Assembly: GCA_973895155.1 (NCBI GenBank)
Contig: OZ316894.1
Span: forward strand, 12,192,828-12,256,827
From: Marsupella aquatica
Taxonomy: Eukaryota > Plantae > Marchantiophyta
Direction of reading: 5' to 3'
Length of the DNA: 64,000 nucleotides
Below the pieces are notes generated by a model. The model saw nothing but the letters and a program-made list of their open reading frames with translations. It did no database searches and was not told where the DNA came from. This document shows, piece after piece, positions 5,149 to 59,564 of this stretch. Every line of letters starts with the position of its first letter. The first letter of the stretch is position 1. Position numbers and translations under genes: made by a program.

Positions 5149-5619
5149 TAATCTTATTTTAATTATTTTGTTTAAATCATTTAGTGTTATTGTAAATACA
5201 TATGCGAGTACATATGTGGCTCCCAAACAGTTTTTTATGTGCAATTACTGGGATGCTTTCATTTAGTGGCAAAAATTTCTGTAAAGAGGTCTTAACTAAA
5301 GACACTTTGGCAAGAAATTGCTAGGACTTTAGTATTTCAGTAACCACTTTCCATCTAGCCTTCACCCACTTTAGGGAAAATATATCACTTATCCCAAATC
5401 TCCATAAATTAGATAGCCACTTTGGCAAAACATTTCTAGTTTTCTAACCTTTCAGTAGCCACTTTTCCGCCTAGCCATATACTCCACCAGCCACACTCTA
5501 ACTGTTATTCTTAATCTACAGAAATTTAATCTACAAAATTAGATAAGGAGTAATCTTAGGATCATCTCATTCACCCTGTCACCACCCTGGCCAAAAAGGA
5601 AAAGACTTTAGATCAGGCC

Positions 5620-6591: not shown

Positions 6592-7183
6592 AGGCACCAG
6601 GACAGACGACAGGCCTTCCAAAGTGAAGATAGGCCTTCCAAAGTGAAGATAGCAAAACAAGAAATTTAATTACTACAGCCGCGGTAGGAGAAGCACACTC
6701 CACATGACTAGCCAGTGCTCAAGTACCAACAAGGTACCATTAAGTGGTTCCCTGATGGAGCTACTGTACTTTACTACCAGTCAGGGCTACAGTGAGGCAT
6801 CTAATCCTATGAGGCAAGCTAAGCTCATGGTGGGTGGGGGGGGGGCATGGTACCTGCAATCTGTCCAAATGAATTGCCCAAAGACCTGAGTAAGCACCAC
6901 AATCAAAACACATATCTAAGTAGGCCTTTGTTGTTGTTGATTTCCCAGCTTGGATCTTAGCACAATGTTTGGCCCAATCCTTTCTAAGATAAACTCCTAG
7001 TCAGTGCCATGATTTCCCAAATAACAATATGAGGATTGGACCTAGTGTGCTCAATGAAATGAGAGTTACGGTCCTTCCAGATTTTCCAGCAGACCCGTAG
7101 GGTATGTCACATATTTTCAGTGACATCCCACTCTTCAGGTCAGGGTTTAGCAACAAAAAATTGAGTTGGCTAAAGATGCAGAG

Positions 7184-7526
7184 TGTTGAGCATAGACGAC
7201 ACTCGTAACGATAAGCACATGACACATCCAACGCGCAAGTAGTCGACACAAGAGATACGTGGTTCACCTCCTTGAGGCTACGTCCACGGGAACACACAAG
7301 AGAGCTTTACTGAACTCTAAGCCTGTCGACTATACCAAGTCTCCACAGTGTAAGCTCTCCTCATCTCTCAAGTGGCCCCATAACAATGAGCCTAAGTTCC
7401 ACTTATCCAAGCAAACACCGCTTGACATATAGTGTGCATCCTAGTTAACCTAATCACATCTCCGACTACGGTTAGTCTAACTATGGTTATATGTCGTAAC
7501 CCTAGACCTTGAGTAAATACCTAACA
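7184..7526 (-). repeat. 3' LTR of copia element
   Basis: 343 bp; adjacent to the PPT. Confidence 0.96.
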
Positions 7527-7537
7527 ATCTCCCCCTT
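7527..7537 (-). other. Polypurine tract
   Basis: AAGGGGGAGAT on the minus strand immediately upstream of the 3' LTR. Confidence 0.9.
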
Positions 7538-7718
7538 GACTCTGGTCTAGGGGAGGGTAATACTGCTAACCTATATGATTCCTCAGCGGGAAGTTCTGGA
7601 CAAAAACCAACATGGTTTCCCCTCTCTAACTAGAGCAAACCAGAACTAAGCCATAGCCTATTACTAGGAGTGAAGAAGAGCATATATCAGTAATTACAAC
7701 GAATGTTAAGAAAAACCC

Positions 7719-10700: not shown

Positions 10701-12000
10701 AATTACTCGCCATTGATGACCATTTGTATCCAACACACCGAATGAAATCAAATTCTTACGCATGCCAGGTACAAACCTGACTCCGGACACTGTGCGCACA
10801 ATGCCATCAAACATTTGAATTTTTACAGACCCAATACCCTCAACTCGACAGGAGTGATCATTTCCCATCAAAACTGAACTGTTTGACACAAAATAAGAAT
10901 TGAAATACTCGCGAATGTAACAAATATGAAAGAAGCAAGCACAATCAAGAATCCACACATCATTTTCTCTCCTAGATGATGTGCATAGGGCATACTCTTG
11001 ATTTCATAAAACATACTCATCATTGAGTAAATCAACTTCTCCATCATCACTAGCCACATTGGCTGATGAAGATTCAGCTGCCTTATCCTTACAATCCCTC
11101 TTAACGTGACCAACCTTGTGACACTTCCAGCAGACTACTGGCTTTCTCTCCTGGGACTTCCCCCTTGAAGCAAATCTTGTCCTAGATTTACTTCTTCCCA
11201 TGCCCTGCGTGCGCTGCTCTTGACGCTTTTGTGACCTCCCACGATTCACATTCAAGGCAGCACCAGACGATGATGATGGCTGAGAGGGCATGGTCAATTT
11301 CTGCTGCAAGTCATCAGTCAACAGAGCACTTACAACTTCATTGTAAGTGATAGTCTTCGTGTCACGATGAAGCAGCACTCGTGACAATGACTGATATGAT
11401 GAGGGTAAAGAGCTAAGCAAGTGAAGAGCCTGCCGCTCATCACTCAAATCCTCCCCCAAATTTTGCAAATCAACGACCAGGTCGTTGAAACCATCGATAT
11501 GGTCTTGAATCTTTGCACTTCCCTCCTTCATCTTGAAGCTCATAAGCTCATAAGCTTCAAAGATGTGTAGAGCCGATTCGATAGCTCCTTTTGATGGTAC
11601 TTTTGCTCCAACGTGGCAAACAATGATGCACAATCGACATGGTCTGCCAACTGCTTGATGACATTAGGCTGAAGATAGAGCATCATGGTGCTCACAGCCT
11701 GCTCCTGCATGTCCTGCCAGTCATCTTATCGACATCATTTGGCTGGTCCTTCAGCAATTTCCCAAGCCCGGTTGCACGGAGTACCCCCTTCACTTGTCGC
11801 TCCCACAACAAGTAGTCTGTGCGGCCATCGTATTTTGTAACCTCAAACTTGGGACCTCCAAGCTTGATTGTCCCCATCCTTTTTCTTGTCACTCGCCGTA
11901 ATACCGGTGACCACAATTCTGCTAGATCTTCCGTTTCCTCCTCTGTTCTCTCCGGTGACTCAACAAAACCCTCCTCCAAGTCACTCATGTGAGAAATCAA
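7719..12000 (-). pseudogene. Copia gag-pol, broken by stops/frameshifts
   Basis: Gag with CCHC knuckle CWKCHKVGHVKRDC (11004-12000); protease WILDCACFFH with degenerate DSG (10623-10958); integrase LWHSRLGH..CEHC, SFIDDYSR, PQQNGVAER (9828-10574); RT YKARLVAK, LYGLKQSPRQW, LYMDDM (8565-9815); RNase H GYVDSD, STTEAEY, CDSQSA, KHIDVRYHF (7719-8513). Confidence 0.96.
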
Positions 12001-13365
12001 GAAAAAATGACGTTTTTCTCAACTTCTCAAAAAACTCAAAAGTTATCACCGCCACTTAGCCCACGAGCCTAGCTTTCCAACGCTGAAAACCAAAATCAAA
12101 ACCAAACTCCGACGTAAAAGTTATTCACTTTTCGGTCGGGGTGGATAAAACTTGGAATTCTCCCCCGTTTTGACCAAATCGAGGAATAACCAACATTTGA
12201 ACTAGTACCCGACGTCGGAAATGCAATTCAATTTTTGCACCGCGTTGCCAACTCTGATGGCTAGCAACTTGCCGAAGATGAACGAAAAAAGTTACCTTTC
12301 GGCGGACAAAATCTTTGACGGACGGACAAAAAATAGCTCTCTGGTTTTTTGGAATATTCTATGACCCTTATACAAGCCCTATGGGAATTTTGGAAGAACA
12401 ATCGAGGGGCTGACACGTGTCCTCGAACCCCCAAAACCCCCTACCACCCTTCGTCATCGAAATCTGGTCGTGCGCGCAGAAAATACACACGGCAGAATGT
12501 ACCCCTCGACACCAAACGCAAGATATCTCACTCGTGTTTTGACGAAATCAAGATCTGATTTCAGATTTGGAAACTAGACTCTGAGGCGGTGAAGATAGAT
12601 ATAAGAAGCACCCAAAACGAGGAAAGAACGAGGGAGAAAAAAATTGGTAAAGATGATAGATTTTTCTCAATTGCCATAGCCAATTTCGAATCAGTTTTTC
12701 AAAGAGAAAAAATGGTACCTTGTCAACAATGAATGTTGATGTATTGCACTTGGTGCCGTCACCAAGTCCAACAAGGTAATTGATTTCGCTTAGCCTTCCT
12801 CTTCGCATCAAAGAGCCAATCCCGGACTCACAATAATCGTCTTGCCTCAATCTCTCCGTTGAGTCAAAACACTTGACGCTTCTCCCTCCAAGTTGATTGC
12901 CACGACAGGAAACCCCGCTCAGGCAAAAGAGGACTCCATAGCCGGTCAGAAAATCAGAATGCTTCTTTTACTTGTCCCGTCGCACACGGTATTCACTTGG
13001 TAACAAATCAGCTACCAAAACAAACAGCTCGTCCCGATCTACAAGCAGAGCTACAGCATGCGATGCCTCCTTCGCCGTAGAGCTCACACCATTGAGAAAA
13101 AAACTCTGGTCCCTCCTCCAAAAAACCGTCGAACACGAATATTGCCGACTTTCTTCACAAAATCCAGAACGACAAAAACTTAGATCTCTCCGCACCACGA
13201 GCTCCGTTCAGCGATTTCTTCACACCGTTAGAAAGCTCTTGCCCCAATCTATCCGTTGAGCCCATAAACTCCAAGTTCCATGCGACGAAACTCCGGGAAA
13301 TCCACCGACACTCAACGTTGGAAAAACTGTCACGAAATCCCGTCACGAACACACGTCCCAGGCAT

Positions 13366-13377
13366 GCTCTGATACCA
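13366..13377 (-). other. Primer-binding site, initiator tRNA-Met
   Basis: TGGTATCAGAGC on the minus strand, 2 nt inside the 5' LTR. Confidence 0.95.
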
Positions 13378-13379
13378 AT

Positions 13380-13720
13380 TGTTGAGCATAGACGACACTC
13401 GTAACGATAAGCACATGACACATCCAACGCGCAAGTAGTCGACACAAGAGATACGTGGTTCACCTCCTTGAGGCTACATCCACGGGAACACACGAGAGCT
13501 TTACTGAACTCTAAGCCCGTCGGCTATACCAAGTCTCCATAGTGTAAGCTCTCCTCATCTCTCAAGTGGCTCCATAACAATGAGCCTAAGTTCCACTTAT
13601 CCAAGCAAACACTGCTTGGCATATAGTGTGCATCCTAGTTAACCTAACCACGTCTCCGACTATGGTTAGTCTAACTATGGTTATATATCGTAACCCTAGA
13701 TCTTGAGTAAATACCTAACA
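13380..13720 (-). repeat. 5' LTR of copia element
   Basis: 341 bp. By manual alignment it differs from the 3' LTR by ~12 substitutions (all transitions) and one 2-bp indel. Confidence 0.96.
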
Positions 13721-21201: not shown

Positions 21202-24179
21202 TGATGTCACTCCGAGGGCTTAGGTCTTAACAATCTCCGGTAAGCAAAGATTTGGCTAGTGTTGGTCTCATTTGCATGGTTGTGTGCACCAGTTTAATAA
21301 TACCCTGCACATCATGTTTGTGGGAGAAGCTATGGTTTGTTGCTTGCAGTTCATATTGTAATCATTAGCATTAGGCCTTGTGGTTGTTTCATGTAGATAG
21401 AATGTGGTTGCCATTGTCCTGTGCGAAAGATTTGAGCGCCCTTCTAGTAAACAGGAGAACTGGCTCTCGTTTGGAAGCCACTGTCAACAGTTGAGCTGCA
21501 TTTGACCATGAAAAGAAGCATTACGAAAGAAGAATTAAAGGACTGAATGGGATCGATAGAAAACATCTGTTATCCTGAGCTTTGGGGAAGTCAAAGGTGA
21601 ACGATTAGAACCTAGGCAAGAAGAAATGTCTTAAGCTCCAGTCCAGGAACCTCAAGCAACAAGGAGTGCTTGAAACTAAGTTCTAATGAAGGAAGCGTAG
21701 AGGTACCCAGAATCGTTACAAGTTCTAATTTTGCAATTGTTCGTGTCTGTGATGAGAGGAAGAACCTTAGATCTCTTCAAGATATGCAGATTGACAGAAG
21801 ATTTTGAAGGTACCCGAGAGTCAAAATCGTCTGTGAAAATGGTCTTTGTGTGGAAGATAAGACATTTGTCCTGTTTACAATCGGAAAACCAAATCGAAGT
21901 CAGAGATAATATTCTCCGACCTTTTATTGTTTCAATACATGCTTGGGAGGAAGATGAAACATAAGTGCTATTCGCAACCCCCAAAACAAAACAAGGAGAT
22001 CCTGTGGCCCTCTATCGTTTCACACGACATGCTTGTGGACTGCAGGGCTAGGGCTAGGTCTAGTTTTAGTTTTTGAAGTAGAAGAGACGGTGTCTCAAAT
22101 AAATTTAAAGACCACCGCTGCTCAAACCTGGGGGGTGTAGAGAAAACAAAATCAAGAAGCCACATCACGTTTAGATTTGTCACATGTTGTGTCATAATGA
22201 GAATTTAAGGAATTGAGAATGTGGCTTTAAGCTGAAGCGTTGGTGGTCTGAAAACCACAAACCAAATTGATGATTTAATGGAGAATGTGGACACCAGAGG
22301 GAAGAAGCCACTACCACCAATAAGGAAATGAACCCAGAAACTCTTTGTGGGGAGTGTGGACAGTGTGGAGAGTTTGAAGGGTTTTAGTAGTTTGAACTTA
22401 TTGTTTGGGTGTCTTTATTGTAACTGAGAAGGGCAAACCCAGATGAATTGTTGAGATGAAGGGAGGTGGACTTGTAGTACTATAGCAAGCTTATCTTTCT
22501 TGCAAGTGCAATTGGGATTAAGGAGTGGAATGAGTCAATCATGCTCATTCAACTAGTCAAGGGAAGAAAAGTGCTAAAGAATTGATTCCCCTACAGTCTC
22601 CAATGTGACTGTTGGAGAAAGAGGGATGTTGATTGTCGCTCTTATGAAGACTATTGAAAAGTGGTTATTGTCATGAGGTGATTATTCAGGAAGAGCTGTT
22701 GGTTCCAATGGGTGATTGGAGAATCTGACGGCTACATGAAATTAATAGAGTTTTATGTGATCAATCATATTTTCTGCTCACCCATCCGCTCAGACATCTC
22801 TCAGACATCTCTTAAATACCCTTTCTATCTAAGAGTACACTTCACCAAGCGTAAATGTCTCAGACATGTCGTACCGTTTCTGTCTAAAAATACACTTCAC
22901 ATGCATAAACATTGGCGCTTATGCCAACAACATAACAATTTGATACAGTTTTCAATAACCAATTTACATAGAGAAACATGTTTTAGGGGGAAAACCTTAC
23001 TCTTCTATAGGTGAAATTTGTGAAATGGCAGCAGATGTTTTGTACCTTACAAAGGAATCTGCGAGACCCAGCTGTTCCTATCTACCGTAGGTGAAGATCC
23101 AGAGCTCTGGTGATGATTTGGACATGGTGGATAACCCTATTGATTTCCAAGGATAGAAAGTACAGGCAATTACAGGAAAGTGTATTGGTCCGTTTGTATA
23201 TTGTGTGCAATGCACAGGTTTTTCCTTCCAGACTCAAGCTTGGTTTCGGCTTGCCTTGTAGGATTTTTTCCAGTTTGAAGGATAATTGGTGGAACTGGCC
23301 ACCATTTCCCCCCCAACTTAGGTTGTCTAAGTCGGCTTTCTTTCCACCAGAGTCTACAAAATCGTGAAATTGAAGCTCACATAAACCCTCGTGTTAGACA
23401 AGATCCTCAGATAGACCGTGGCAGCTGACATCACAACTACATTTTGACTCAACTTAACGTTGCCTCACAACAGGCTAATCTCGATGTATGAAACTCTAAA
23501 CGGAAACACAGAATCCCCAAGGTAAAATTGGCAACGTTCTGGATGTCTAGATTGACGTGGTTGCTTACGTCGTCTCACACGACGCACATTGCCACACCGC
23601 CAACGTGGTTCTTTGTGGGCACGACGTCCTATGCATCGTTAGAGTACTGGGCTAATGTAGATTTCCATGTCCATTAAACGTCGCACGAACTGACGTTAAT
23701 ACAAACAAAATGCCGTGATTGACGACGTTGACTCCCTCGTATAAAACAATGTTAGTTTTTGTAACGACGTCGGGGACACCGTTACGTTTGATGTAATGTG
23801 AATTCGTTCATTGGTTTACGTCATGTGATAAGACGTTGTTATCATATATCGATGTCATGAACGACGTTGTGTGAAAGTGGAAGACTACGTCTGGGTCATA
23901 CCTTGTGAGAAGCTTGGTAACTTTATGAATGAACGACGCCCCGTATATTATGCCGGACCCTGCCATACAACCTTATTGGAGGTTATAAACACACTTAAGC
24001 TAGGGTTACAATGGGGTGAGCATTATTTGGGTAGGCAGTTGGGGTTTAGGGATACACATTCAATATGCATATGGTATAGACGTTGTAATTCACGAAAAGT
24101 GTCATATTAGATAATATTGTTATGGGCCAAATATGTACAAAATGGAGGATGAAGTCGGGCAAGTAAAATAGGCTATACC

Positions 24180-26353
24180 CTAGTCACGCTCAGTCCGCCT
24201 GGTATCACGTCCAGACCTGCGTGTAGAAGTGGGTTGTACGCCTCTCGGGCGCAACTCGTACCTGGAGTCATCCTCCTCTAAGCTAGTGGTACTGGGGGAC
24301 AACGTATCTGCCTGTGTTGCAGCCCTATGAGTAGTCACTGGCCTACTCCCCTTACTGTGTGGAGGTCGCCTAGTGTCATCCCTCCTCCTCCTCTCCCTCT
24401 CCCTCTCCCTCCCCCTCCGTCTATCTGACCTATCTCTCCCTATCTCCCTCTCTCTCCCTCCCTCGGCTCTCTCTCTCTCCCTCCGGCCTTGGCCACTAGT
24501 ACGCCCCCCATGAGTCTCTGCCTCCTCCTGCCCGCAATCTACGTGAGCCTCCTCCTGCAAACCCTCCTCGGGCGGTACCCTGGCTAGCAAGTGATCCTCA
24601 GGGATGGCCCATGCAACCAAGCCCTCCGGAGGAGTCCAATCCTCCACCTGCATGATAGCATTCTGGTCAGTTAATGTCACAGAGTAGGCCTAAAGTCAAC
24701 TACAACCTAGCAATCACTTTAGCTCTTACCCGGTGATCCTCCGGGACTGAGGCCAACTTGGCCCATAGCGCTGCCGGGCCATACCGTTTCGAGTACAGCC
24801 GCTCCTCCTCCGACGGCTCGGCATCGACACCAAACTTGCGTTTCTGCGAGAAAGCAAAAGAGCGTCGTTCCTAAGCACGTATTCAACCCTCTCAGCATCG
24901 GTGCTAACGTTGTTCCATGCGTTGCATATCTAGTTAACGTCGCTCTAACGACGTTTTCACTAAAGCAGTACATGTAACGTCTCAAGGACAACGTTCTTCC
25001 TAAGGTACGTCTCAGATGAAGTTACAAAGCAAATTTAACGTTGTTATGGACGACGTTATGAATGAATCAGGCGACGTAATTTCAAAATCTCGACGTTACA
25101 CTATGGTTTACACCGGAGCAGCGAAATGAAAACGTGGAAGTTGGGTCCGAGACTTACGTAGGTTGCGAGGAACCCTCGCCATCCTCCTTGCCCCCAGAAA
25201 TTGGTTACTAGAAGGCGTCCGCTATTCTTTCGAGCTGTAGTGGCTTTGTCACCCATGTGCACTCGTTTTCCTACTGGGGTGTCTGGGGGTGCTTCAAGTT
25301 CAGACACGATCAAGTTGAAGTCCGACTCGGCCATCCCTTCAGGCTTACGGTACTGCCCTGTCTTCTCGCATTTCATTGCTCGGACCTTGCTTCTCCACCT
25401 GAATCTTCTGTCAGCAAGGTCAACTCACAATCTTCTGCCTGATGTGTCGAAAATCAATCTCTCTGCCATTCTTGAATCCGGCCTGTATGTCATTGAGGAG
25501 TACTTGAAACTTCTTTGTATTGTGCACGAGGTCCTTCCAAGTCGTCCACCCAGGGCAGTGTTTCGTACAGCAGACCTGCACTCGATTCGTTAGCGCCTTC
25601 TCATCAAGCACCTTTGGCTTCGCATCAAAAGCAGCCAGGCTGATGACCGGCAGTTGTTCTTTGCTGGCAGGAGTAGCAACGGTTCGGTGAGGAGAAGCTC
25701 ACCGATGACCTCCTCCGATTGAATGTGAATGTCGAGGTGACCTTCGACCTCTCCTATCTCTGTCCACCCTTGAATCTCGTTCAGCCCTTTTTCTCTTGTG
25801 TGTGTTGCGGCTGTCTCTTTCTCTGCGCTCCTTTCCCTTCCCCTTTTTTTTGTCTCCTCTCAATGCTACTATTGCTACTCAAAGAATGGGAACGACGTCG
25901 CCTTCTGTGTGTCCGCAACTCTGTACTTGAATCATCAGGCTCATATCTCTGAATCCTCACTTGGCTCTTGATGGGAGTAACACAGGGTGGTTGTGAATCC
26001 GGCTCCATCCCAGAGAACGAGGGATAGTCCCAGACTGAGTCCATCAAGGGCGGGAAGGAAGCAAGAGGATCAAGTGATGCCCCCGGAAGGTCGCGCAAGA
26101 ACTCTGGTGCTTGAATGTCGGGCTCAACGTCGGATGCTGGAGCGTTCTCTTCTATGTTCTGAAGGTATTCCAGAAATCGTGACTCCTTCGTCCCAGTTCC
26201 TCCCATGAATTGCCAACTCTGATTGAAAGCATCAATCAGTGAATGTGCTGACCGCAAAGCTGTTCGAACCTTCTCCACCTCCTCTGGGTCTTCCATGGAA
26301 ACTTTCGCAGCATCAAAGTTGATACTGAGGGGCAGATAAGCTGGACGTGACAT
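24180..26353 (-). pseudogene. TnpA-like (Transposase_24/Ptta-type) gene, divergent from tnpD, disrupted
   Basis: Putative exons 26353-25158 (RS-rich, then RRFRWRSK..PEGMAESDFNLIV..KATTARKNSG..NFWGQGGWRGF), 24843-24730 (KRKFGVDAEP..) and 24647-24180 (acidic/RE-rich), with GT-AG junctions. Exon 1 has frameshifts and a TGA. Confidence 0.6.
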
Positions 26354-26871
26354 TGAGGCAAGACTTGGAGCAAATGTAGATGACCTTCACAAAGATTAGA
26401 GCTTCACTAGAGCTTCACTAGAGCCACAAACAGAACAAAACACTAGATGTGGGGTGAGGTGTGTGCGGAATGGTCGAATGACTCACATTCGACACTATGC
26501 CCCGGTATTTTCCGAATAGAATGCGGCAGAGTTCGCAACAATGTGTTTCCGCCGTTCTCTATCTATTTACGTCGTTTTTCACGATGATGCCCTAATTGAT
26601 CGATTAGTAATACGTTGTGCTAGACGACGTTTGCATTTAAACCTTGTTCTGTACACCGTTAAAAGGTAGGGTTTACTGTAACGTCGTGTGGGGTACGGTA
26701 CATGACGTAGGGTTTAAGAAATACGTCGTGTATTGTGTTCTCGGCGACGTAAAGTGAAAGTACTTCGTTTTACTTGACGTAAATATTGTGGTACTATAGT
26801 GGTCTTGACGTTCCATTTCCAAGGCTGAGTTTGCAAGTTTGCGTGTATATGTGTGTATACTATTGCAGGCC

Positions 26872-27390
26872 ATGGCCTCGTGCTCATCGGAGTGGTCATC
26901 TGATGATCGCTATGATGGAGGTGCACATCACCGAGACAGGTACCGCTCTCATGATAGGGGGAGGGAGAGGAGGAGGGAGCACTCACCTGCCAGGTCGAGA
27001 TACCACTCAGCCGAGAGGAGGAGGGACTTATCATCTGATAGGAGCAGGCACCATTCGTCTGAGAGGAGTTGGGATCAGTCTTCAGATAGGGAGTACCGAT
27101 CTAGGGATCATCAACATCGGGAGCGACGAAGGCATAGGAGGTCCCATCGACAGTCCCACCGCCACCGCCGGTCCAGGTCTCCCTCTGATGACCACACACC
27201 CCGACACCGATCACCCATGCCGGAGGATGAGGATAGGTTTGGAGAGGCCATGGCTGCCCTTCAGGGGATTGGCCCAGTCCGAAAGATGCCCTGCCCATGT
27301 AGTAGATGCAAGGGCGTCGTCTCCCACGAGAGGACCACTGTCCTTAGCCATTTAGGCCTCCACGGCCGTTACGTACCCCTGACACATCAG
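26872..27390 (+). CDS. Shared first coding exon: RS/RE-rich region plus transposase-associated Zn-binding domain
   Basis: ATG at 26872, 173 codons, phase-0 donor CAG|GTAATT at 27390/27391. CPCSRCKG..RTTVLSHLGLHG matches the CPCxxC..V..HL...G N-terminal domain of CACTA transposases. Confidence 0.85.
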
Positions 27391-27540
27391 GTAATTCATA
27401 AACCTTTATTGACACTATTCAATTCATTAAGTCCTTATTTTTGAATATAACATGTTTGGGTTTCTTGAGTTTTCTTGAGTGTTTAGTTGGAATGGTTTTT
27501 TCCCTGATTTCTGAAGTTCTCTTGTTCACATGTGAAACAG

Positions 27541-28360
27541 ATTTTGTGTGTGGTCTCTCCGCCCTTGGACCACATGAGACAGGTTGCACGTCGCGCGCTC
27601 ACAACACTAGTTCCCCCATCAGCACTCGATGCCACGTTAAGGGCAATAGACCGTGTTTTTGATAGGAGGAGGAGGGTCATACGGAGTCACCCTATTGAGA
27701 GGGGAGTAGAGGTCACCACTAGACCTCGGTCCATTACGTCTCGTATCCCTAGGACGGTGCCGCCACATTGTCCTTTTCGTGATGCCTCTTTTTCCCGAGC
27801 ACCAAGAGAGTTAAGAGGGAGAGCCTTGGACATCATAAAGGACTCATTCCCAACCCAGTTTGGCCTCCCTATGGTCCTGCTTGTTCGGGAGCCTATTGTA
27901 GTTTGGGATAGGCCATGGGTCCTCCTCCCATCCACATTGGGACCAGACGTAGGTCTTGGATTATTTGCACTCATGGATATTGTGGTGCCGGAAGGTTGTG
28001 CACCTGAGGACCTGCCCGAGTTGATTCCATTTTATGGGCCAAAGTATTCGGCCCATAGATGGCGTATCTTGTCTCGCCAATGCCCAACCTTTGGTCGGTA
28101 TGGCATGTCACTAAAGTTGGACCCTAGGTATACTCAGATGGATGCATGGTTACCCCCCTCGTACTGGAAACTTGGCGGGTTACATCAATAGCATAGTGGG
28201 CTGTCGGCATTTGGGGTTCCGCCCCAACGCTGAGTGGCATGAGTACCATGACCAGAGTCACCCTCGTTTGCCCTTGGGATGCAGTCACTACATCCTGACA
28301 CATGCCACCCGCACCATTCGAGCAGGGGATGAGATATTTGTAGACTATGATTGGCATTGA
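27541..28360 (+). CDS. SET-domain (lysine methyltransferase-like) exon inside transposase intron 1; one 4-nt frameshift
   Basis: Acceptor AAACAG|ATT is in frame with exon 1. Motifs: PSTLGPDVGLGLFA (GxGLFA), FYG, GNLAGYINS, PNAEW, ATRTIRAGDEIFVDY. Removing the GCAT at ~28144-28147 joins ORFs 27532-28191 and 28142-28360 as QMDGYPPRTGNL. Confidence 0.85.
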
Positions 28361-28503
28361 AGATTATATATGTTATTGATCACTTATTCATTACTCAGAG
28401 TGAGACTTATATTGGATTCTTTGACCTTCATTACCTCATGCACTATTGGGAACACATTGTCTAATTTGGGGATGACCTTATCTAATATTGACGTCTTGCA
28501 TAG

Positions 28504-31500
28504 GATGGTCCAAATATAACACCTACACCTCATCCATCGATGATGACGGAGTCAGCCCGTTCGTTCCACATGCGAGCCACATTATCTTTTTCTGACGACG
28601 AAGATGTTGAGAGTGATCATGTGCATGAGGACGAGGATGTGGACGAGGATGTGAATGAGTACCATGATGCACATGATGGCGATTTTGATGAAGATGTAGA
28701 GGATGATATGGATGCACCTATTCTTGAAGAGGATGCTTTTGCGCACCTTGTGGACATCCGCTTTGGACCTCATGTACCTGAGGGTGACCCTCCTGTCATG
28801 GAACTAGACAAAGATGATTGGGACCAATTGGAAACTGAATCCAGGACTCCGCTATTCCAGGGTTCCCCGATCTCACGGTACATTTCTCTGAGGTGCTATT
28901 ATAGTTTTTCTACTGTAATGTTGCTTAAGGGTGTGCATAAACCCTAAGTCCCCAATTGGACCATCCTCAATGGCATGCCTTAAACTAATTAAAAAGCTGG
29001 TTTCTTTGTGGTTTTCAATGCAAATGCAGGTTGGGAGCCACACTCTTGATGTTGAATTTACAGGGGGTTTTCAATGGATCAGATGTCCATACAGATGCAC
29101 TCTTTGCGTTGTTCCACAACAAACTCTTGCCTCAACCTAACAACCTTCCAGGATGTGTGAGGGAGGCTAAGAAGTTGTTATCATCTATCGGACTGGCGTT
29201 AGAGACTATACATATGTGCCCTCATGGGTGCATCTTGTATAGAGGACCCTACTTGGACCTCACCCATTGCCCAATTGAGCGATGTGGCCTTCCACGGTAT
29301 CGTCCTGATACCATTGGAGACAAGATTGCTGAGAAGGTAATGACATCCTTCTGTACCACATCTGTATTTTAGTATTTTTTGACGTTGCCCTCGTGAGTAG
29401 TACGTCTTTCAACTAGAAGTAAATACCCCTAACGTCTCCCTTGTGATTTTTACGTCTTTCCATATGACGTTTTTTAGTCCAACGTCGATGTTTGCACCGT
29501 AAAAGTTTAGGGAACGTAGATCTGCTCAACATGAAACAATAACGTCGTTCTGGACAACGTTCACTTTTAGGATACGTAGTTATGTTCAATACAGAAGTAA
29601 TACGTCGTATTGAACATCGTAAAGATTTTTGGAACGTAGTTATCATCAACATATTTGTGATGTTAACGACGAAATGCCGCCTCATGGTTGTTGTACATTC
29701 AGGTACTGAGGTATTTTCCAATCACACCCCGATTGCAGCATCTATACCGGCGAAGACACCTATCCTCCCTACAGACTTGGCATGCCGAGACCAAATCCCC
29801 AGCAGGGATAATGCGGTATCACCAAGATAGTCCAGCATGGAAGCACATTGATGCCACATGGCCAGATTTTGCTGCAGAGCCACGGAACGTTCGGTTGGGG
29901 TTGGCCATAGATGGGGTAAACCCATACAAGCAGCGACGGAAACCAAAGTCCATTTGGCCAGTTCTTTTGATAAATCAGAACATCCCTCCATGGTTGGCGA
30001 TGAAAAAAGGTCATGTTCTCCTCCTAGCTATCATTCCCGGTCCCGAGGCTTGCAAGAATCCAGATGTTTGCTTGGCCCCAGCTTATGAAGAGCTACATGA
30101 CTTGTGGGAAATTGGGGCTCCAACAACAGATGTCACCCGTGCACCGGACAATGGGAGGACATTCAACATGAGAGTCATGATCACCCATTGCACCACTGAT
30201 GGGCCAGGTAATTCAAAAACCTTACAAAATGTGATTATATTGTGCTAAATGACTTTATGTCTTCATTTGGCTTCTTTTATTGTGGGAATATGATGGGGTT
30301 TCTTTGGCAGGCATGGGCACAATATCAGGCTTGAAGGTGGCTGGGTACTCAGGTTTCCCTTCATGTGGCCCTGAGTTGCATGGGAGGTACTCAGTACTAT
30401 TGCACAAAACCACATATGAGGGCAGCAGGATGAGATTGTCAATGGATGACCCCATGCGATGTAACACAAGACATTGGGCACAGACTGAGTTAAGACCATG
30501 TCCTAATGCGCCTTCAGCAGAAGCTCAAATTCACATGGCAGAGATGGTGGAGGCTAAGCTGCTGAAACCCAAAGATTGTGGAGTAAACCGACGCTCAACA
30601 TTGTGGGACTTGCCTTATTGGAGGGTAGGTACAATACACCTATCAAATGTTGTGTATAGATTTTTTCATCAACTCTCATAATGCTAGAGTTTTTCACTTG
30701 ATTACCATGTTGTGCAAGCAGATGCTCAAGATCCGGTGGCTACTGGACCCCATGCACATTGAAGTGAATGTCGCAAAGAATTTGGTGAATCACATGTATG
30801 GTGAGAATGATACTCGTGGAGTTCGTGTGAATGCAAAGAATGTAGGAGTTGTGAAGAGCTATTGGATATCAGGTACATGATAAAACATAGATCAACCCTT
30901 AATTTGTAAGAAGTTGCCCAGATTTGCCTGAAACCCCAAACCCTAACAAGTTGATTCTCTTTAATTATTGGACAGCACGTACTGGGGTGACACCACCAGC
31001 CCCTTGGATTTTGCCTCGAGACATTCTGAAGGATGTGAATGGGATGATTTGTGAGATGAAGTTCCCGAGCCATTACGGAGCTGGATTCCGTGGGTGCACA
31101 ACGAGGAATGAGTACATCCCCCCGATAGGGTTGAAGTCCCACGATTATCACAAGTTGATACAGCATGTGCTCCCTGCAGTGTTGCGTTGTTGCGATGATT
31201 CTAGAGAGCGCCACCTACTCCGACTCACAATGTACGAGTTGTGCTCCATTTTCAGGTTGGAAATATCTTACTCGTGGATTTTGTGGTGTTATGGGACCAT
31301 AAATTTATGGTGTCTCAAACAACATTCTAGAGAGGATACGTAGTCTCTTAATACTTTACGTCGTCTATAACTAGGTAATGTAAAAATATGATGCCCCATA
31401 CGACGTATTCAAGGTCGTATAAGTCACCCCTCTTCAGGAACGTCCTACAGAGCGACGTTTGTAGGAATCTTAGTAGAGGGAATGTTAGTAGGCATTGAAT

Positions 31501-32762
31501 TGGTAACCATCTTAGCCCACTTTCAGATTGGGCGGTGATATTTATTCCTGTCATGTTTTTGAGTGCCTCATAGGTGGGTATGTGCCAAGGAGATCAAGGA
31601 GTCAGAGATTCCTTTGATGAGGGAGAGGACGGCGCAAGTGATGTGCAATTTGGAGCGAGTGTTCCCCCCAGCACTGTTTGACATGCAAATGCATTTGCTA
31701 TGTCACCTGGTGGATGAAGTTGCCATTGCAGGCCCAGTCCATGCCCGATGGATGTATTGGGTTGAGCGATATATGAAGGTGCTCAAGGGTTGGGTGCGTC
31801 AACCCGCTCGACCTGAGGGAAGTATGGCAACAGGGTTCATTATGTCAGAGTGTCTTTTCTATTCCGGGGGGGTGATAGGGAGTTTGGATAGCAAAGCTCC
31901 CACAACTTGGGAAGAGGCACAAGATGATGACAATGGTGGGCTGCGATTGATGGGTGCGGCCAAGAAGCGATCATTGGATGATGACATCTTTCGTCGACAG
32001 ATCCATAATTATGTGTTGGGGAATCGACCGGAGATGTCTGATTGGAGGGAGATGTATAGGTATGGTACTCTAAAATTTTAATCGATTGTGAATTGGATTT
32101 GAGAAGGCTGCAAATCTCTAACAATCTTGTGACAACGTATTTGGCAGTGCATGGTTGGAGCTTCAAGTGGGAGTTGCGCAAGCAGGTCGTGGCATTGCAT
32201 CATTTCGTGTCTGGGCTTTGGAGCGCATGGAGAGCTCTTGGCTGTGCATGGGTCTACATCCATTCCCATTGATGTACAAAACATCATTAGAGGGCCAGGG
32301 ATGCGGGCCACGACTCATACACACATGTTTGAGTCAGGGCATCACTTTCGGACTTGGAGGACAGACCATATGAAGAAGAGTACTTGTAACTCTGGAATCT
32401 TCATGATGACTGATGTAGATGATGTAGAGGTTCCTTATTGTGGGACAGTTGTGGACATTTTAGATGTTCATTTTGGGTCATTTGTCACCACTGTACTAGA
32501 GGTGAGGTGGCACAAGTCGATCATGTCACCCCTAGCGAGAGCTACGATGGTTGCGGATGAGTGTGGTTTTTATTGCGTGGACACAACCCGAGTTGCACCC
32601 ACAGGGACTGAGTTTAGTGACACCATAGTTTTTCCTAGCCAGGTGGATCAGTGCATTATGGTTCCGATGCAGACCATGAGAGGATGGTCCATTGTCATAC
32701 CAATTTTCCCTCGGCGAAGGAAGGGCTTCATGGCATCAGTCCTTGCAGACGATGCGGACTGA
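28504..32762 (+). CDS. TnpD-type CACTA transposase (Transposase_21, DUF4218, DUF4216-like), exons 2-9; one apparent 1-nt frameshift near 32230
   Basis: Phase-consistent GT-AG exons 28504-28877, 29030-29336, 29703-30207, 30311-30624, 30722-30872, 30976-31255, 31574-32059, 32148-32762. Motifs IHMCPHGCILY, VLRYFPITPRLQ, DSPAWKHID, RNVRLGLAIDGVNP, LDPMHIE, GLKSHDYH, FDMQMHLLCHL, RWMYWVERYM. Confidence 0.93.
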
Positions 32763-33398
32763 CACTATCCTTCACACCCTCCATTTATATGTATTGGCTA
32801 TGCCCACCTTCCACATATATATTGACATATGTTTCGACGTTTGAGATCTGGCAAACTGGAGGGAGAGTTGTGCAAAGTTTCTTCTTTCCTCACTTTATAG
32901 CTAAGAACACATTAAAAAGCATTAAACCTCGGCCTTCGAACAACCTTCAATGGGTCCTAGCACGTAAACCCTTATCACGTAGGCCAATTGACACTTCGAA
33001 CTTATTAACGTCAACCTCAACGTCATTAGACAATCAAAGGTCGCTTATACCCATAATGAAGATGTTAATCTATAGTTACGTCATAAATACATTGTACAAA
33101 CGACATATACATAGTACGTCCTTGGTTTACCGCGTAGTAGAGGACGTAGATTGTGTTACCGTGTCTTAAACGACGTAAACGTTTATTTAACCATTCTTCT
33201 GATGACATTCAAAGTTTCAATCGACGTTACTCACAAAACACATTACAAATATAAATTGCCTGGGAGGGACTTTTTATTCATGCGCTCAGAAACATACAAT
33301 GTGCACATAAGGCATGAGTCTGACTCCAGTCTAAACTGATTCCAATCCTAGGCAAATGATGCTCCTCCGTCTCCAGCTGACCTTGGCACTAGTGTAGC

Positions 33399-33958
33399 TT
33401 AAGGGGTCCCTTCACCAGACCAGTAGTACTCCTCATCTGCCTTCCTCTTTTTGTACGAATCATGCCTATTGCTGGCATTCCATTTCTTACGGACCACTGC
33501 TTCACCAACCTTCAGCCTTTCAGCCTCTATCTCAGCTGCACAGCTTTCCTTGTAGTCATACATCACAATATCAAGTTCAGTCGGTGACAACTGACATTTA
33601 GCCAACTTTGGTGGACAAGCCTCACCATCATCATCCTTGGGCGTATCGTCCAGCATCAAATCGTCCCCTGGATGCAGCAAAAACTCTTCTGGGTCCAACT
33701 CCTTATTGCCCAGAATGGAGTACTGTACCCAAAAAATCGAGATGAATGCACGGACTCTGCAAAGTGCTCGATCAATCCAGGATAGTCACTGAAGTGCTCT
33801 GTGACTTGTTTCCAGGTATTGGCAAGCAAGTATTCCGTCTTTGAGTTACAAAACTTGTCTATCACACCTCCACGACAAAAAAAGCCACGAACAGTCTTGT
33901 CTTCTTCACCTAGCGGAAGAAAACAATAGTGGACATCCTTGAATATCTTACGCACCAT
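33399..33958 (-). CDS. Orphan accessory gene inside the CACTA element (~185 aa if a 1-nt frameshift near 33705 is repaired)
   Basis: Overlapping ORFs 33656-33958 (ATG start) and 33399-33698 have protein-like sequence, an acidic stretch and a KKRK NLS-like motif. Convergent with tnpD and inside the TIRs. Confidence 0.55.
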
Positions 33959-34470
33959 AGCTGAAGACTTTCAATCTCACTCTGCAAATTCTGTGCACTA
34001 TCGTACCCGTAGGACATCTGAAATCACGAATGACCTGTGCAGTGAGGTCCCAGTAGCCTTGCCCCAAAAACTCCCGCAAAAAACCTTACGCATGCCAATT
34101 GGATTCCATTAACGTCGTTGCCCACATTGGTCATATACGTCTAACATCGCCCAACATCCATTATACGTCGTCATAGCATAGTATCCGTTATAGCCACGTC
34201 TGAAACGACGTACATCTATACGTCGACCCAACCCTATTCTGCTACACCGTCTGGGACGACGTCTACATGTTTGCCTCGTTATAAAAGACGTTAATAGCCC
34301 TATTGGGAGATACGTTAAATTAAAGACCCTCTAGAAGACGTAAAATGGGAAGGAAAGTCAAATGGGTACACCCATTTTGGGTTACGACGTAGAGGGAGAT
34401 GTACTGGGGAGTAACGTCGTGTCACATGATGCGAAAGGAAGTCACGACGTAGTGAAATGTAGTTGTGCAT

Positions 34471-37630: not shown

Positions 37631-40600
37631 AAAGAAATATACACACTTTTTATATACAAAGGGACCAAACAGAGTACAAATGAACAAACAAAAGAGGGCC
37701 CAAGTGGACAAAACCAATCGAAAAAGAAATGAGCAAAAGGGAACCACTAAACACCAAGAAAGAGGAACTAAAAGTAAGAAATGAACAATAGGGAACCCCT
37801 AAAAACCAAGAAAGAGAGAGAGACTAAAACTAACCCAAGCGGACCGAGGTCCTCATCATTCCTACCGATTGTGGCAAAAAGCTAATGGTCCACATCAAGA
37901 GTCAAAACTAGATCGGCAAGTGGGATTGGAACATCCTCAAGGGGAGCTAGCCGCTGCGGAGGCACACTAGCACCCACTGTAAGAGATCGACGATAGATGG
38001 CCCGAGCTTGAGCACGCTGTAAGGTGACTGAAATGCGTTGGCGAAAGTGCGTGGTCAAAATAGAAAGCGGGGGTCCGGTGGGACCCATTCGGGCATGAAC
38101 ATCCCGGGCAGCTTGCCGAAGAAGCCCATCAAACTGAGGATGAAGACGCCCAAATAGCTCCACAGCAAGGGGGAGGAAGCTGTCGGATGAAGCTCGTGCA
38201 GCATATTTGGCCTCCTTCATTGTTGCCGCACGTGACGCTGCTGCCCCTGCCATAGTTGCCGCTGTCCCAATGATGTCTTGGCGCAATGGGTTTGCCACCA
38301 CAACATCTGCCAAAGTACGTTGACCCTCACGGACCATGGTAAGATCCACCCGTAACCGCTGTGATGGAGGACCAGGTAACTCGAGTACCACCTCCCGCCG
38401 CACGCATACCAAAGAGCCAGAGAGAACCTGAGCAGTCGCATCTCGCACAGCGTCGTGAACAATAATGGTTTCACCTCCCAAACTGCACCGAAGAAGATGG
38501 ACACCTGTGGCATCACAAGGCTTCCCACAAGTGCAAGAAGGAGGTAAACCTGCAAGAAGTGGGTGGGGCAGCCCCAGACGAAGACGCATGGCTGTGGAGA
38601 ACTCCGTTGAAGACATCCGCAAATGAGGAATGACTGGATTGGCCTGAAGCCATCCACCTGCGCCCTTCCCTCCAGAAGAAAGAATCCGAGCTCGGTCCGT
38701 GTCAGGTGCCTTGGAGAGGATGCTGGAAAGGGTGAATGTGTGCATACGCCCAGCGAGGTCTGCCTGAAGACGAACGGGATCCAAGGATAAAAACTCCTGA
38801 AAAGAAGGTAACGAGGCATGAACGGGATCTGGTAATGAGGACCGCGCTGCGCGCAAATGAACCTGAAACGGGAGGGAACCCTCCTCTACCTCCATGAGAG
38901 ATGAAAGTAAAAAAGGGCGATCCTCAATAAGAAAACGATCGGCCAACAACGAGAAGGCGGCCGCCCATGCACCCAAAAAGGCCAAAGGTGCAAGGCTCTC
39001 AATGGAATTAAGCCCAAAACCACCCTGCGAGATAGGAAGACTGAGTTGTCGATGAAGCCACGAAGATGAGAGCAACGTACCCGGACCTAAAAGAGAGGCC
39101 AGGGTCTGACGAATGGAGACATCAAATGCTCGAAGGTGGAGACAAAGATCCTCGGTAGGGGGATGCGTCCTAGCCAGATAAGACGCATGAGGGTGGATGC
39201 ACCTCAACAACATCCCAAATGTTGCCTGAGAATCTGCTAACTTAGGGAGCATAGGAGTATGGGCTAAGGCAGCCTGTATAGAGTCAGCGATGAAAGATGA
39301 GCAAAAGGAGGCGGTACCGACTGGGGAGCCAAGGACCCGAAGACCATCGGCTGGACGTAAGAACCCTGGGGGAAGCACAAGATCAGAGGGTAACCCAGCT
39401 GGACTCCATGCACGACTCTTCACAGGCTGAACTCGTAAACTGAGGCCCATCAAATGGGTGGAAAGAGTGGCGAGGGCAGAAGTAACCGCGGCAGGAGGAC
39501 CAATGATGTGGGTGTCATCTGAAAGGGAGGGGAAGATACACTGGGGGTGGGCCATGGCAGCTTCCCGTAAAGCTGTAAAATGGGCAATGGCAAAAAGAGG
39601 CCCACCCAAAGGGTCACCCTGACGTGTACCTTCTGCAGAGGAAAGAGTGGTATACACACCTGTAGAGGAGTGATGACTATAGAAGAGTGGGGCCTCGAGT
39701 CCATAAAAACAACGGACAAAGGGGATCAGGGACTGGATGTCTGGATCCGCCGCCCTCAAAGCACGAAAAATGGCTGCCCGAGAAACCGTATTAAAAGCGT
39801 TAGAGACATCAACCTGGAGGACAACCCAATCAGGGTGGAGGTCCAATGTAGCTCGAATACCCGCAATAACCGTCTCACAACCGCCAGGAACGCCAACTGC
39901 AAACTGATGTGGAGAGAGATGATCCGATAGTGCAGAGCGAAACTGTGAGGAAAGTGTGCGAGACACAAGACAAAGAAAAACCTCCCCAATAGCAATTGGC
40001 CGAACACCCGGTGAAGACTTAGCCATGGCCAATAAACGAGAAGCACTCAAGAGCCGAGAGACGGGAGGAGGCAAACGACCGGCTGCAATACACTGGCAAA
40101 AGGAGAAGAAAACTGGAAAACCAAACTGAGGATCCTCAAGGGGGAATAAATCACGAAAATGCTCAAAGACATAGCCGGAGGGGCCACCAGCAGAACAACG
40201 TGGGGCATGGAGGAAGGCATAGGTGAAGTGGTCCCTACTAAACTGAAGATCCTCATCAGGCTCAAAATCCTCGACAAACAAAGGGAGCTGATCATGGGGC
40301 TGCGGATGGAGATCCTGAAGGGCCAATGAGGTGACCTCGCCAGGGGGGGCTGGTGTGGTGGGAGAAAGGGCCTGGACAGCCCGACGATATTCACCAGCCT
40401 GGGCTAAACGACAAGAGCGACGAAGACGTCTATGCTCAGGGGGATGAGAGTGGCGAGCTGGGTCAGACAAAGCACGGGCGGTAAAAGACCGGGCGCGAAG
40501 AAAGTACTCTTCCTGAAGCTGCTCCCAATCTCCCCGCAAAAAACGATGGATACGAGAGGCAGTCTCACGGTGACCCACACGACCACCATGACTAGGGAGG

Positions 40601-41560
40601 GTAAGAGTCCACTATGGAAAAAGCATCAGTAAAGACCAATAGGAGACCTCCATAGGATGCGCCAAGATAAGCTGCATGAGTTGCAACAAGGAGGACCGAA
40701 CTATAGGGCGCAGCGCCAGAGGAATGTGGTTATAAAGGCGAGGTCTAATGTACCCTGGATGGTAGGCTGGAAGGGGGTCTAGAGTGCGAACCCAACTCCA
40801 TGCCTGCTCGGGAGCCTCCAAGGAGGGAGGGGCAGAGCTAACCGGGTCAATAGGGGGCTGAGGCTGGGATTGTGCTTGTTGGCGACGATGGCACCGGCCC
40901 CGCCTGCGATGATGAGGGAGGGAGATGCCAACCCATCCACAGTCAGGACAAGTATGCAGGGGACGCTCGTCCGGGGAGGGAGCAGGGAAAGACTGGACAG
41001 GAGGTGGGGGTGGAACAGATGTGGACGAGGAGGCCGGAGGAGGATGATGAATGGGTGGAGGGGGAATGGGGTGGGGAGAGGAGCCAGGGCGACGATGGGG
41101 TGGGCAGTAGACGGGGGGGACTGGCAGAGCATCGGGCATGGGATCATCACGAAGATCCAGTGAAGAAGAGCAAACACGAAGACGGCCACGAGGGGGAGGG
41201 GAGGACGGGGGAGAAGTGTGGGGTGGGGCTGGGCGCTTGCCCCGCGCCAACACTCTCAACGTAGACATGACAGGCCGCAACCCGATAAAAGCAAAAACGC
41301 ATCAAGAAGCGACAAAAGGCCCAACCGAGGCATGTGAAAAGAAAGGGGAGGCGATGGAGAGAGCCCACCGCATCAGGTCGAGAAACGGCACCACCGCTAG
41401 CCTAGGAAACCATTGAGCAGGTGCAGGAACAGTAAGGAACAAAGCTGAAACGCCCGTCGATCTGTCCGTTGGGGAGTCGACGCGAGTGAAGATCCGCCCT
41501 CTAGATTGAGCGTGCGGCAACAGCTCCCGAAGGCAACAACCAATTGGAGGAGAAGCGATG
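37631..41560 (-). mobile_element. CRE-like non-LTR retrotransposon with restriction-like endonuclease (5' boundary uncertain, may extend to ~42616)
   Basis: Single long frame ZnF-RT-CCHC-RLE. The T-rich 3' UTR (37631-37881) is shared with copies at 55472 and 62336. Confidence 0.88.
37882..41268 (-). CDS. RLE retrotransposon protein (~1128 aa) with one in-frame TAG at 40612-40614
   Basis: ORFs 40612-41280 and 37882-40578 share a frame. N-terminal CPDC..HHRR..H Zn finger; RT GVRPIAIGE, DVSNAFN, GTRQGDPLG, LSDD, VLGSPVG; CTC..H...C knuckle; RVD..ADV..KEAKY and PLAVELFG endonuclease motifs. Confidence 0.9.
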
Positions 41561-41562
41561 GC

Positions 41563-42390
41563 CTAAAGCCGATGTGACTCGCTCATACGTTGCCCCAAAT
41601 CGAGTCGTGGAAACGCCAAGATCGCCAAACGCGCAGCCAATGTGAAAAAACGGCGAAACCTAAATCTGATGAAACTCGCTCAATTGGTGACCGTTTGAGG
41701 CGCAATTCATATCGATCTTCACCGTCTCGCCAAGATCTTTCCAAAGCCGTCAAGAACACCCAGATCCGAAACTCCTGGAGAAAGTTATGACCCAAATGGA
41801 GTCGCGAAATCGCCAAAATGGTCAAACGCGCAGAAAAAGTGAAAAAACGGCAAAACCTAAATCCGATGTAACTCGTTCATAGGGTGACCGTTTGGGGCGC
41901 AAGTCGTATCAATCTTCACCGCCTCGCCAAGATCTTTCCAAAACCGTCAAGAACTCCCAGATCCGAATCTCCTGGAGAAAGTTACGACCCAAATTGAGTC
42001 GCGAAATCGCCCAAATCGCCAAACGCGCAGAAAAAGTGAAAAAATGGCGAAACTTAAATCCGATGTAACTCGCTCATACGGTGACCGTTTGAGGCGCAAG
42101 TCGTATCGATCTTCACCGCCTCGCCAAGATCTTTCCAAAGCCGTCAAGAACTCCCAAATCCGAAACTCCCGGAGAAAGTTACGACCCAAATTGAGTCGCG
42201 AAATCGCCCAAATCGCCAAACGCGCAGAAAAAGTGAAAAATCGACGAAACTTAAATCCGACTTAATGCGCTCATACGGTGACCGTTTGGGGCGCAAGTCG
42301 TATCGATCTGCACCGCCTCGCCAAGATCTTTCCAAAGCCGTCAAGAACTCCCAAATCCGAAAATCGTGGAGAAAGTTACAACCCGAATTC
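41563..42390. repeat. Tandem array, ~198-bp units, ~4 copies plus a partial one
   Basis: GGTGACCGTTTG.GGCGCAA.TC.TATC.ATCT.CACCG.CTCGCCAAGATCTTTCCAAA recurs with a ~197-198 bp period (unit starts ~41667, 41864, 42062, 42259). Confidence 0.93.
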
Positions 42391-42928
42391 AGAGAGACAT
42401 CTCGTGCGCTTCGAAGTCTCTCCAACGAAAGCAGCCAAGACTTTGTTTTGGTATCACTTTTTGTTTTGACTAGCTTGAGATTGTCGTTCAGTTAATCTCT
42501 TCTCTCATAACGACAGCCTTTGTGTGAATCCATTCAGGAGCGAAATGTAATTATTTGAGGTATTCAGACCGGTGCAGGTGCCGTCCCTTTGCCGCATCGA
42601 CGACATTTCCAAACATTTCCAAATGTTTCCAATTTTTCCACAAAGTAACCAAAATCTCCTAAGGAAACACAAGAAGAAACTCGGAGTCCCCATCCAACCA
42701 TAAGAATACTTTTTGTGGGGCTTTCTACCACTAGTTTTTAAGTTACAACAATTTTCTCTCCTTTTCTTACAATGGGGAGAATTATTTTAATTAGAAAACA
42801 GTACCATTTGGTAATCAGAAAAAAACCCCCCAAACACTATCATACACATTTTCCCATTTTGAAGACTTTGATGATTTGGTTGATGGGACATTAGCTATTA
42901 ATCACACATTTTGCAGATTTGCTTGATG

Positions 42929-59387: not shown

Positions 59388-59564
59388 GTTGCACGTTTGC
59401 AAAATTTTCTCATGGCATGACGGCTTCTGCAGGTTTTAAAATATTATTGGTGGAGTGTTTTAAGATGTCTTGATCAATTATTGTCTGCCGCTAATGGTAT
59501 GTTTTGTGGGGTTGTCAATGTTCTATCATGGAAGGAGGGGGGGGGGGGGGGGCATTGGCATTTA

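Follow-up and report, generated by a model that had tools for sequence, protein, structure and literature searches.

What reads the arrays of short motifs that fill the non-coding DNA of a bryophyte transposon, and what would they be for? The question is raised by a CACTA/EnSpm element lying in a stretch of 64,000 nucleotides of Marsupella aquatica (contig OZ316894.1, positions 12,192,828 to 12,256,827; hereafter the window). An initial annotation had noted dense clusters of the tetranucleotide ACGT in this element and proposed that they are docking sites for a protein that the element itself encodes. Here we describe the unit of these arrays, a 21-bp dyad with a fixed spacer that is present at both ends of the element, in both intergenic regions and in three inferred introns. 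We consider it rather likely that an element protein binds these sites. We also favor, with less assurance, the idea that the internal arrays extend self-protection from silencing across the whole element through a dimeric element-encoded binder.

ACGT occurs 94 times in the element, compared to a mean of 31 and a maximum of 44 in 200 dinucleotide shuffles, a check that had been set in advance and that is unaffected by the choice of windows. Non-coding element DNA contains 81 ACGT in 4,366 bp (18.6/kb), whereas the exons hold 13 in 6,670 bp (1.95/kb) and the window outside the element 96 in about 53 kb (1.8/kb; binomial p 1e-20), so that the motif is indeed sparse in exons and beyond the terminal inverted repeats (TIRs), as first described. 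The seven clusters reported earlier each exceed the mean of 1000 dinucleotide shuffles of their own sequence: 23450-24090 (16 ACGT observed, 6.1 shuffled), 24860-25160 (13 and 3.8), 26560-26820 (9 and 5.1, p 0.02), 29381-29638 (12 and 4.0, our recount agreeing with the original 12), 31340-31460 (4 and 1.4, p 0.02), 32960-33230 (10 and 4.5) and 34080-34450 (13 and 3.8). These windows were chosen after the motif had been seen, which makes their p-values generous, and two of them reach only 0.02. Five of the seven clusters are internal, and internal arrays recur every 1.2-2.8 kb. Overall, arrays fill four terminal or intergenic regions and three long introns (315, 365, and 318 bp) in an exon/intron model inferred from splice signals and homology. 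The claim that internal introns carry arrays hence stands for 3 of the 11 inferred introns and fails for the eight short ones, which together hold 2 ACGT in 923 bp.

Although ACGT is enriched, the bare core is not the unit of the arrays. Orienting the 81 non-coding cores revealed a half-site, WACGTCGT, followed 5 bp downstream by an inverted second half. The resulting spaced palindrome, WACGTCGT-N5-ACGACGTW, is found in 30 copies in the element and in 3 copies over the 53 kb outside. We built the consensus from the window itself, with no spacer imposed: 26 of 73 half-site anchors were partnered (at least 6/8 bases) at spacer 5, against 0-8 at every other spacer between 0 and 25. Of the 23 distances between neighboring dyads, 10 measure 29-32 or 60-63 bp, compared to a null mean of 2.8 (p 1e-4), with the caveat that these bins were set after looking and that one 60-bp tandem repeat supplies part of the signal. 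Two further patterns, a peak of direct repeats at spacer 4 and a T4>A variant, were rejected as artefacts of a half-site that is one mismatch from its own reverse complement.

From left to right, the dyads are distributed as follows. The left subterminal array (23445-24179) has 16 ACGT and 6 dyads. An intron of the minus-strand accessory gene (24844-25158) has 12 ACGT, two dyads with the 5-bp spacer and two pairs with a 4-bp spacer. The region between the divergent genes (26354-26871), likely a shared promoter or an intron of the 5' untranslated region, has 9 ACGT and 3 dyads. Two introns of the transposase gene tnpD follow, the first (29338-29702) with 12 ACGT and 6 dyads in 30/60-bp units, the second (31257-31574) with 5 ACGT and 5 dyads, two of them overlapping. 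The last two arrays lie between the convergent 3' ends of tnpD and an orphan gene (32763-33398; 11 ACGT, 2 dyads) and at the right end, upstream of the orphan (33959-34454; 13 ACGT, 6 dyads). No two of these clusters align beyond the motif (blastn, word size 7, E<0.01), and so they are not recent copies of one another.

We then asked whether the arrays belong to this copy or to the family. The element, whole or partial, is present in six public sequencing runs; the four that were compared, one of which may be the source of the window itself, give cover in all 30 bins. Contigs from other runs keep the arrays at about 98-99% identity, so that conservation of the clusters among copies, also a check set in advance, was borne out. 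On these contigs the arrays are a family trait, which does not by itself demonstrate selection. Small indels set the window copy apart from the others at 25421, 28145-28148, about 32232 and 33744. These are precisely the sites at which its reading frames are broken, and by this comparison it is slightly decayed. In the intron at 29338-29702, the majority contigs of runs X1 and X2 show nine substitutions and an extra 29-bp unit bearing a further half-site. We considered 26 non-coding substitutions, drawn from 40 of 849 table rows and from the 9 majority rows among a further 29. Half-sites account for 6 of them, and at 5 of these 6 positions the other copies are closer to the consensus than the window copy.

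To place the dyad in a broader context we used relatives from a metagenome scan with a DUF4218 alignment, which gave 31 loci that reduce to a few families: about 21 of them are one family (>90% identical), counted once, and many loci do not extend far enough to include ends or introns. Scanning viral and prokaryote contigs for TnpD returned no relatives. Locus L001, a 2.9-kb fragment with a TnpD exon 54% identical to that of the window, carries eight dyads of the form TACSACST-N5-ASGTSGTA, all in two TnpD introns. In this locus 16 of 17 anchors pair at spacer 5, and all six neighbor distances are 30-32 or 63 bp; the half-site is nearly free of ACGT. One of its array introns occupies the position of the window intron 31257-31574, which locus L012 also has, there without an array. 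The second is not common to the window, and the L001 counterpart of the intron at 29338-29702 is short and empty. The family of about 21 loci, which we call the TCGCAA family, has instead the dyad TTGCGA-N11-TCGCAA, with the same 23-bp span. Its sites form a 3' cluster at seven loci (L004, L007, L010, L011, L015, L021, and L023, copies of one family), no more than about 550 bp from the 3' terminus at the six loci that yielded a terminus motif, and its interior from SET exon to TnpD is without paired sites. Lastly, L009, which is nearly full length and has no SET exon, shows AACGTTGC clusters at both ends only. Internal arrays are thus found in two of four families with informative sequence, and these two (window and L001) fall in one clade with moderate support (91/89). 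As judged from these loci, the dyad geometry is common to the families while the half-sites are family-specific.

More distant CACTA relatives (L025:774-922 and 5061-5200; L026:48-335) have AAGCGG/AGGCGG-N13 dyads with a span 2 bp longer. CGGGAG(TC) repeats in L014, L018, and L020 were set aside as probably another inserted repeat.

The CpG content of the arrays gives a more nuanced picture. The ratio of observed to expected CpG reaches 1.23 in the clusters, compared to 0.55 both in exons and outside the element and to 0.14 in short, array-free introns. When half-sites are masked, array introns still exceed short introns (0.63 vs 0.11, p 0.0008), as they do when sites with up to two mismatches are masked (0.45 vs 0.08, p 0.008). 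Changes within half-sites lean toward TG/CA (24/46; p 0.006 versus one third), suggesting that the sites decay as methylated DNA does. This fits sites that are methylated part of the time yet persist, a pattern compatible with selection or with partial protection. The proposal that CpG is retained against the decay of 5-methylcytosine therefore holds for the overall ratios and not for the CpGs of the half-sites, which do decay. As for a methylation-sensitive ACGT/CpG core, it is not a conserved property, since the commonest half-site of L001 is without CpG.

If a protein of the element reads the dyad, the most likely candidate is the product of the minus-strand accessory gene (24180-26353; inferred exons 26353-25159, 24843-24733, and 24647-24180), or else a DNA-binding part of the transposase. 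In the window copy the accessory frame is broken at 25421, where other copies lack one base, and, by inference, near 25850, with one stop near 25701. Its 'tnpA-like' label reflects a presumed resemblance; searches of Pfam and of homologues gave no match, those of the Atlas and of PDB sequences gave weak scores only, and it resembles its L009 equivalent only weakly (p 0.04). That gene (L009:2001-2930, minus strand) is a divergent helical accessory gene without a Pfam match, and bears on the existence of TnpA-like proteins outside flowering plants. By eye we take it to resemble TnpA/Transposase_24; a single-sequence fold of its domain reached a predicted local distance difference test score (pLDDT) of 47 and had no Foldseek match. 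No Pfam match to a VANC-like protein was found in the 14, 7, and 5 pieces scanned.

A second candidate player is the SET-domain exon (27541-28360; PF00856, E 2e-4, 22.2 bits against a cut-off of 22.4), which ends in a stop and is likely an alternative terminal exon of the transposase unit. Searches with HMMER found 54 relatives, the ten that were traced being Logan, ENA, JGI, and NCBI records, while a word-indexed homologue search among longer proteins found nothing. Several relatives start with what appears to be the zinc motif of exon 1, and one runs on into Transposase_21. The model of relative P0011, 58% identical to the window exon, has a SET fold (pLDDT 77.5) and 288 Foldseek matches at E<=0.001, those listed being SET or PR/SET domains. 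SET methyltransferases are marked by the motifs GxG, YxG, NHS, and ELxxDY. Here, GxG is present in 50-52 of 52 sequences, the Asn in 40 of the 45 rows with a residue and the terminal Tyr in 34 of 36; the His of NHS is absent, the family reading INS. We considered whether SET specifies internal arrays and rejected it: in L006, L008, and L017 the SET exon lies directly upstream of TnpD, and over 4.4-5.4 kb the motif is hit 1, 1, and 3 times, at scattered and unpaired positions, with no internal arrays, which argues that the two features are not coupled.

In the window copy the SET frame is broken by four extra bases (28145-28148) that three contigs of run X4 lack. At 28142-28148 the sequence is ATG-C-ATG, as would be formed by duplication of a 3-bp target with a single complementary base added. 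Excision of CACTA elements leaves such a footprint, and the insertion could mark an element formerly inserted there.

Taken together, a dyad whose spacer is fixed and whose arms differ by family, located at termini as are the binding sites of CACTA accessory proteins, is what would be expected of the target of a dimeric element-encoded protein. Maize TNPA is reported to bind as a tail-to-tail dimer. EN/SPM3 TnpA is predicted to homodimerise (PMC13547354). The docking-site proposal is indirectly strengthened by the spacer, by the recurrent geometry and, in one family, by a core that matches one obtained by chromatin immunoprecipitation (ChIP), and weakened by a putative binder that matches no family. 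We suggest that a dimeric protein would read the 21-bp dyad and that phasing would allow a number of dimers to bind along the same face of the helix. Terminal arrays may act as in Spm, in the transposition complex, in promoter activation and in local loss of CG methylation, while internal arrays might carry local protection across the 11-kb body, like the target arrays of VANC in VANDAL elements. The SET product would perhaps be an effector recruited to the arrays, without specifying the internal ones.

Several observations weigh against protection of the whole element. Arabidopsis TnpA acts at termini only (10.64898/2026.08.24.746577). The candidate binder has no family match and is only weakly similar to its L009 equivalent. 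Half-site CpGs decay; the CpG excess outside motifs is not significant under the strictest mask (p 0.25), and L001 array introns have no excess over its other introns (0.44 vs 0.43). Internal arrays are known from two families only, one of them through a 2.9-kb fragment, and the clade joining the two has no more than the 91/89 support given above. Finally, the greater closeness of other copies to the consensus is also expected if the window copy is simply decaying.

A bolder extension is that a bryophyte CACTA clade evolved whole-element anti-silencing independently of VANC, with a dimer of its own and a recruited SET enzyme writing a protective mark, and that TnpA-type recognition predates the split of bryophytes and flowering plants. 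The dating follows, within this scenario, from the dyad geometry and from the TCGCAA core common with Arabidopsis Spm1. We regard this extension as speculative and rather improbable, and either common descent or convergence may explain the common core.

The best-surviving alternative accepts that the same element protein binds, but makes the internal sites a brake or a scaffold that would block or slow transcription in a Suppressor-like autoregulation, set the choice between SET and TnpD splicing or fold the element for excision. All of the dyad evidence fits it equally well, three of the arrays lie inside introns inferred to be transcribed, and Spm TNPA at subterminal sites inside the transcription unit is stated to block RNA polymerase (PMC2613891). 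However, arrays are not limited to introns but occupy both likely promoters and both 3' regions, the clusters retain CpG, and the segments flanking the SET exon, where the isoform would be chosen, hold 0 and 1 ACGT and no array. We thus see a brake or scaffold as possible but doubtful.

Internal arrays could also be neutral by-products, with motifs of the terminal type spreading by slippage or gap-repair copying and surviving where no exon is there to reject them. The array at 29338-29702, with its 60-bp tandem units and the 29-bp unit that varies among copies, would suit such spread, and the two arrays of L001 can be aligned to one another at 71-78%; besides, other families manage with terminal arrays only. 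Yet the window clusters cannot be aligned beyond the motif, their flanks having diverged while half-sites, spacer and phase were kept. Two families with TnpD exons 54% identical have arrays of different half-sites in the same intron, and one divergent contig with its own intron letters still has a 5-bp-spaced pair (read by eye). Neutral spread is accordingly improbable in our view.

Still less credible is that the ACGT cores are sites of host transcription factors of bZIP or NAC type, conferring stress- or stage-specific expression. bZIP factors recognize an ACGT core, and NAC dimers recognize CGT...ACG palindromes with an N7 spacing. Host factor sites do occur downstream of start sites in DNA transposons (PMC13547354). 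Against this, the G-box CACGTG is found 0 times in the element and 6 times outside, 74 of the 81 oriented cores are preceded by A or T, the inner spacing here is CGT-N5-ACG, and L001 and the TCGCAA family keep the geometry mostly or wholly without ACGT. That the dyads work as hairpins or cruciforms in DNA or pre-mRNA can practically be dismissed: an 8-bp arm with a 5-nt loop could fold, and CACTA subterminal repeats have been drawn as stem-loops (PMC2613891), but the arms pair at 5.3 of 8 positions on average, only 3 of 9 doubly changed positions are compensated, and only 2 of 8 L001 dyads are fully complementary, which argues that sequence rather than pairing is kept.

The remaining structure of the locus can be summarized briefly. 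The complete element spans 23432-34467 (11,036 bp), its start at 23432 being a correction to the initial annotation, and is bounded by a perfect 13-bp TIR, CACAACTACATTT, at 23432-23444 and, on the minus strand, 34455-34467, where a deep contig of run X3 ends exactly at 34467. The target site duplication (TSD) is CAT (23429-23431 and 34468-34470). The transposase unit, on the plus strand, opens with an RS-rich exon 1 (26872-27390) carrying a Transpos_assoc zinc motif (PF13963, E 6.5e-4, below the curated cut-off), is followed by the SET exon and ends in the TnpD exons (28505-32762; Transposase_21, PF02992, E 1.6e-38; DUF4218, PF13960, E 7e-30), which lack one base near 32232 compared to other copies. 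Among named TnpD proteins, that of the liverwort Calypogeia fissa is closest (62%), which points to a bryophyte host. The orphan open reading frame (33399-33958, minus strand, about 186 codons) is one base short at 33744 relative to other copies and hence split in the window. It is apparently a single frame in other copies and absent from the 3' ends of the TCGCAA family; Pfam gave no family match, and Atlas and PDB sequence searches gave weak scores at most.

Elsewhere in the window, by eye, are an open reading frame resembling a PLAC8-family host gene (2087-2605, minus strand), a decayed copia-type long terminal repeat (LTR) retrotransposon with pieces of gag, integrase, reverse transcriptase and RNase H (about 7100-13600, minus strand), and a CRE/NeSL-like non-LTR retrotransposon with a 909-amino-acid reverse transcriptase and endonuclease-like frame (37882-41301, minus strand). 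An inverted LTR-like fragment of the copia-type element lies at 4930-5148, and a 230-bp tandem duplication (41888-42495) adjoins the non-LTR element. Two elements of about 560-590 bp with 44-45-bp inverted ends (51194-51782 and 59564-60122) are possibly miniature inverted-repeat transposable elements.

Self-binding that protects a transposon's own DNA is known for only a few elements, and among CACTA elements the documented cases concern termini, in flowering plants. The 21-bp dyad, whose half-sites vary naturally among three families and whose arrays are internal in two of them, offers ready-made probes that could show whether whole-element protection arose twice, which protein reads the dyad and whether the SET enzyme takes part. 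In the full-text literature searched, which excludes most subscription journals and Repbase, we found no account of bryophyte CACTA elements with internal arrays of dyads or with SET exons, and passages of PMC11982613 hold nothing relevant.

How, then, does the element compare to known systems? It has the features of a CACTA element, namely a TnpD transposase, a short TIR opening with CAC (CACAA in this case, not CACTA), a 3-bp TSD, and subterminal direct and inverted motif repeats with six dyads per end; subterminal palindromic repeats of CACTA elements are described in PMC2613891. With the Spm/TnpA systems (maize En/Spm; Arabidopsis TnpA-Spm1 and TnpA-Spm3) it has in common TnpD, the 13-bp TIR, the 3-bp TSD, and dense clusters of family-specific 8-10-bp motifs at both ends. 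Moreover, the TCGCAA of the related family equals the core of the motif CCVTCGCAAA, obtained by ChIP for Arabidopsis TnpA-Spm1. This motif is clustered at termini, where binding leads to CG demethylation through ROS1/DML and to activation while the interior stays methylated (10.64898/2026.08.24.746577). The differences are that Spm binding and hypomethylation are confined to termini, whereas five of the seven window clusters are internal, and that TnpA-like proteins are said to be apparently restricted to flowering plants (10.64898/2026.08.24.746577; PMC13547354), while the window comes from a bryophyte and no match to TnpA, with its tandem helix-turn-helix DNA-binding domain, was found for the accessory gene.

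The VANDAL elements of Arabidopsis encode VANC proteins, which act in trans to bring about a sequence-specific loss of methylation along the entire element. VANC binds non-coding regions of these elements that are rich in its motifs (PMC10398659), and the likeness to the window lies in short family-specific motifs, in tandem-like non-coding arrays that gain and lose units, and in motifs that differ among related families. VANDAL elements belong, however, to the Mutator-like superfamily and the window element has a CACTA-type transposase and, in the pieces scanned, no VANC-like match; its unit is a fixed-spacer palindrome, and its anti-silencing is putative. Plavaka, of the EnSpm superfamily in the red alga Bostrychia, has a SET-containing accessory gene, PAG2, and tandem inverted-repeat arrays adjoining PAG3, proposed to be self-binding sites (10.1101/2025.02.11.637652). 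There, in a different lineage, one array sits by one gene, compared to seven along the window element, and SET is fused to a DNA methylase in a separate gene rather than forming an exon within the transposase unit (the SET domains being likened by description). The window element is thus a member of the CACTA superfamily and not a VANC system, and departs from the described TnpA systems by its internal clusters: as far as sequence can tell, it would combine a motif system of TnpA type with the layout of VANC targets.

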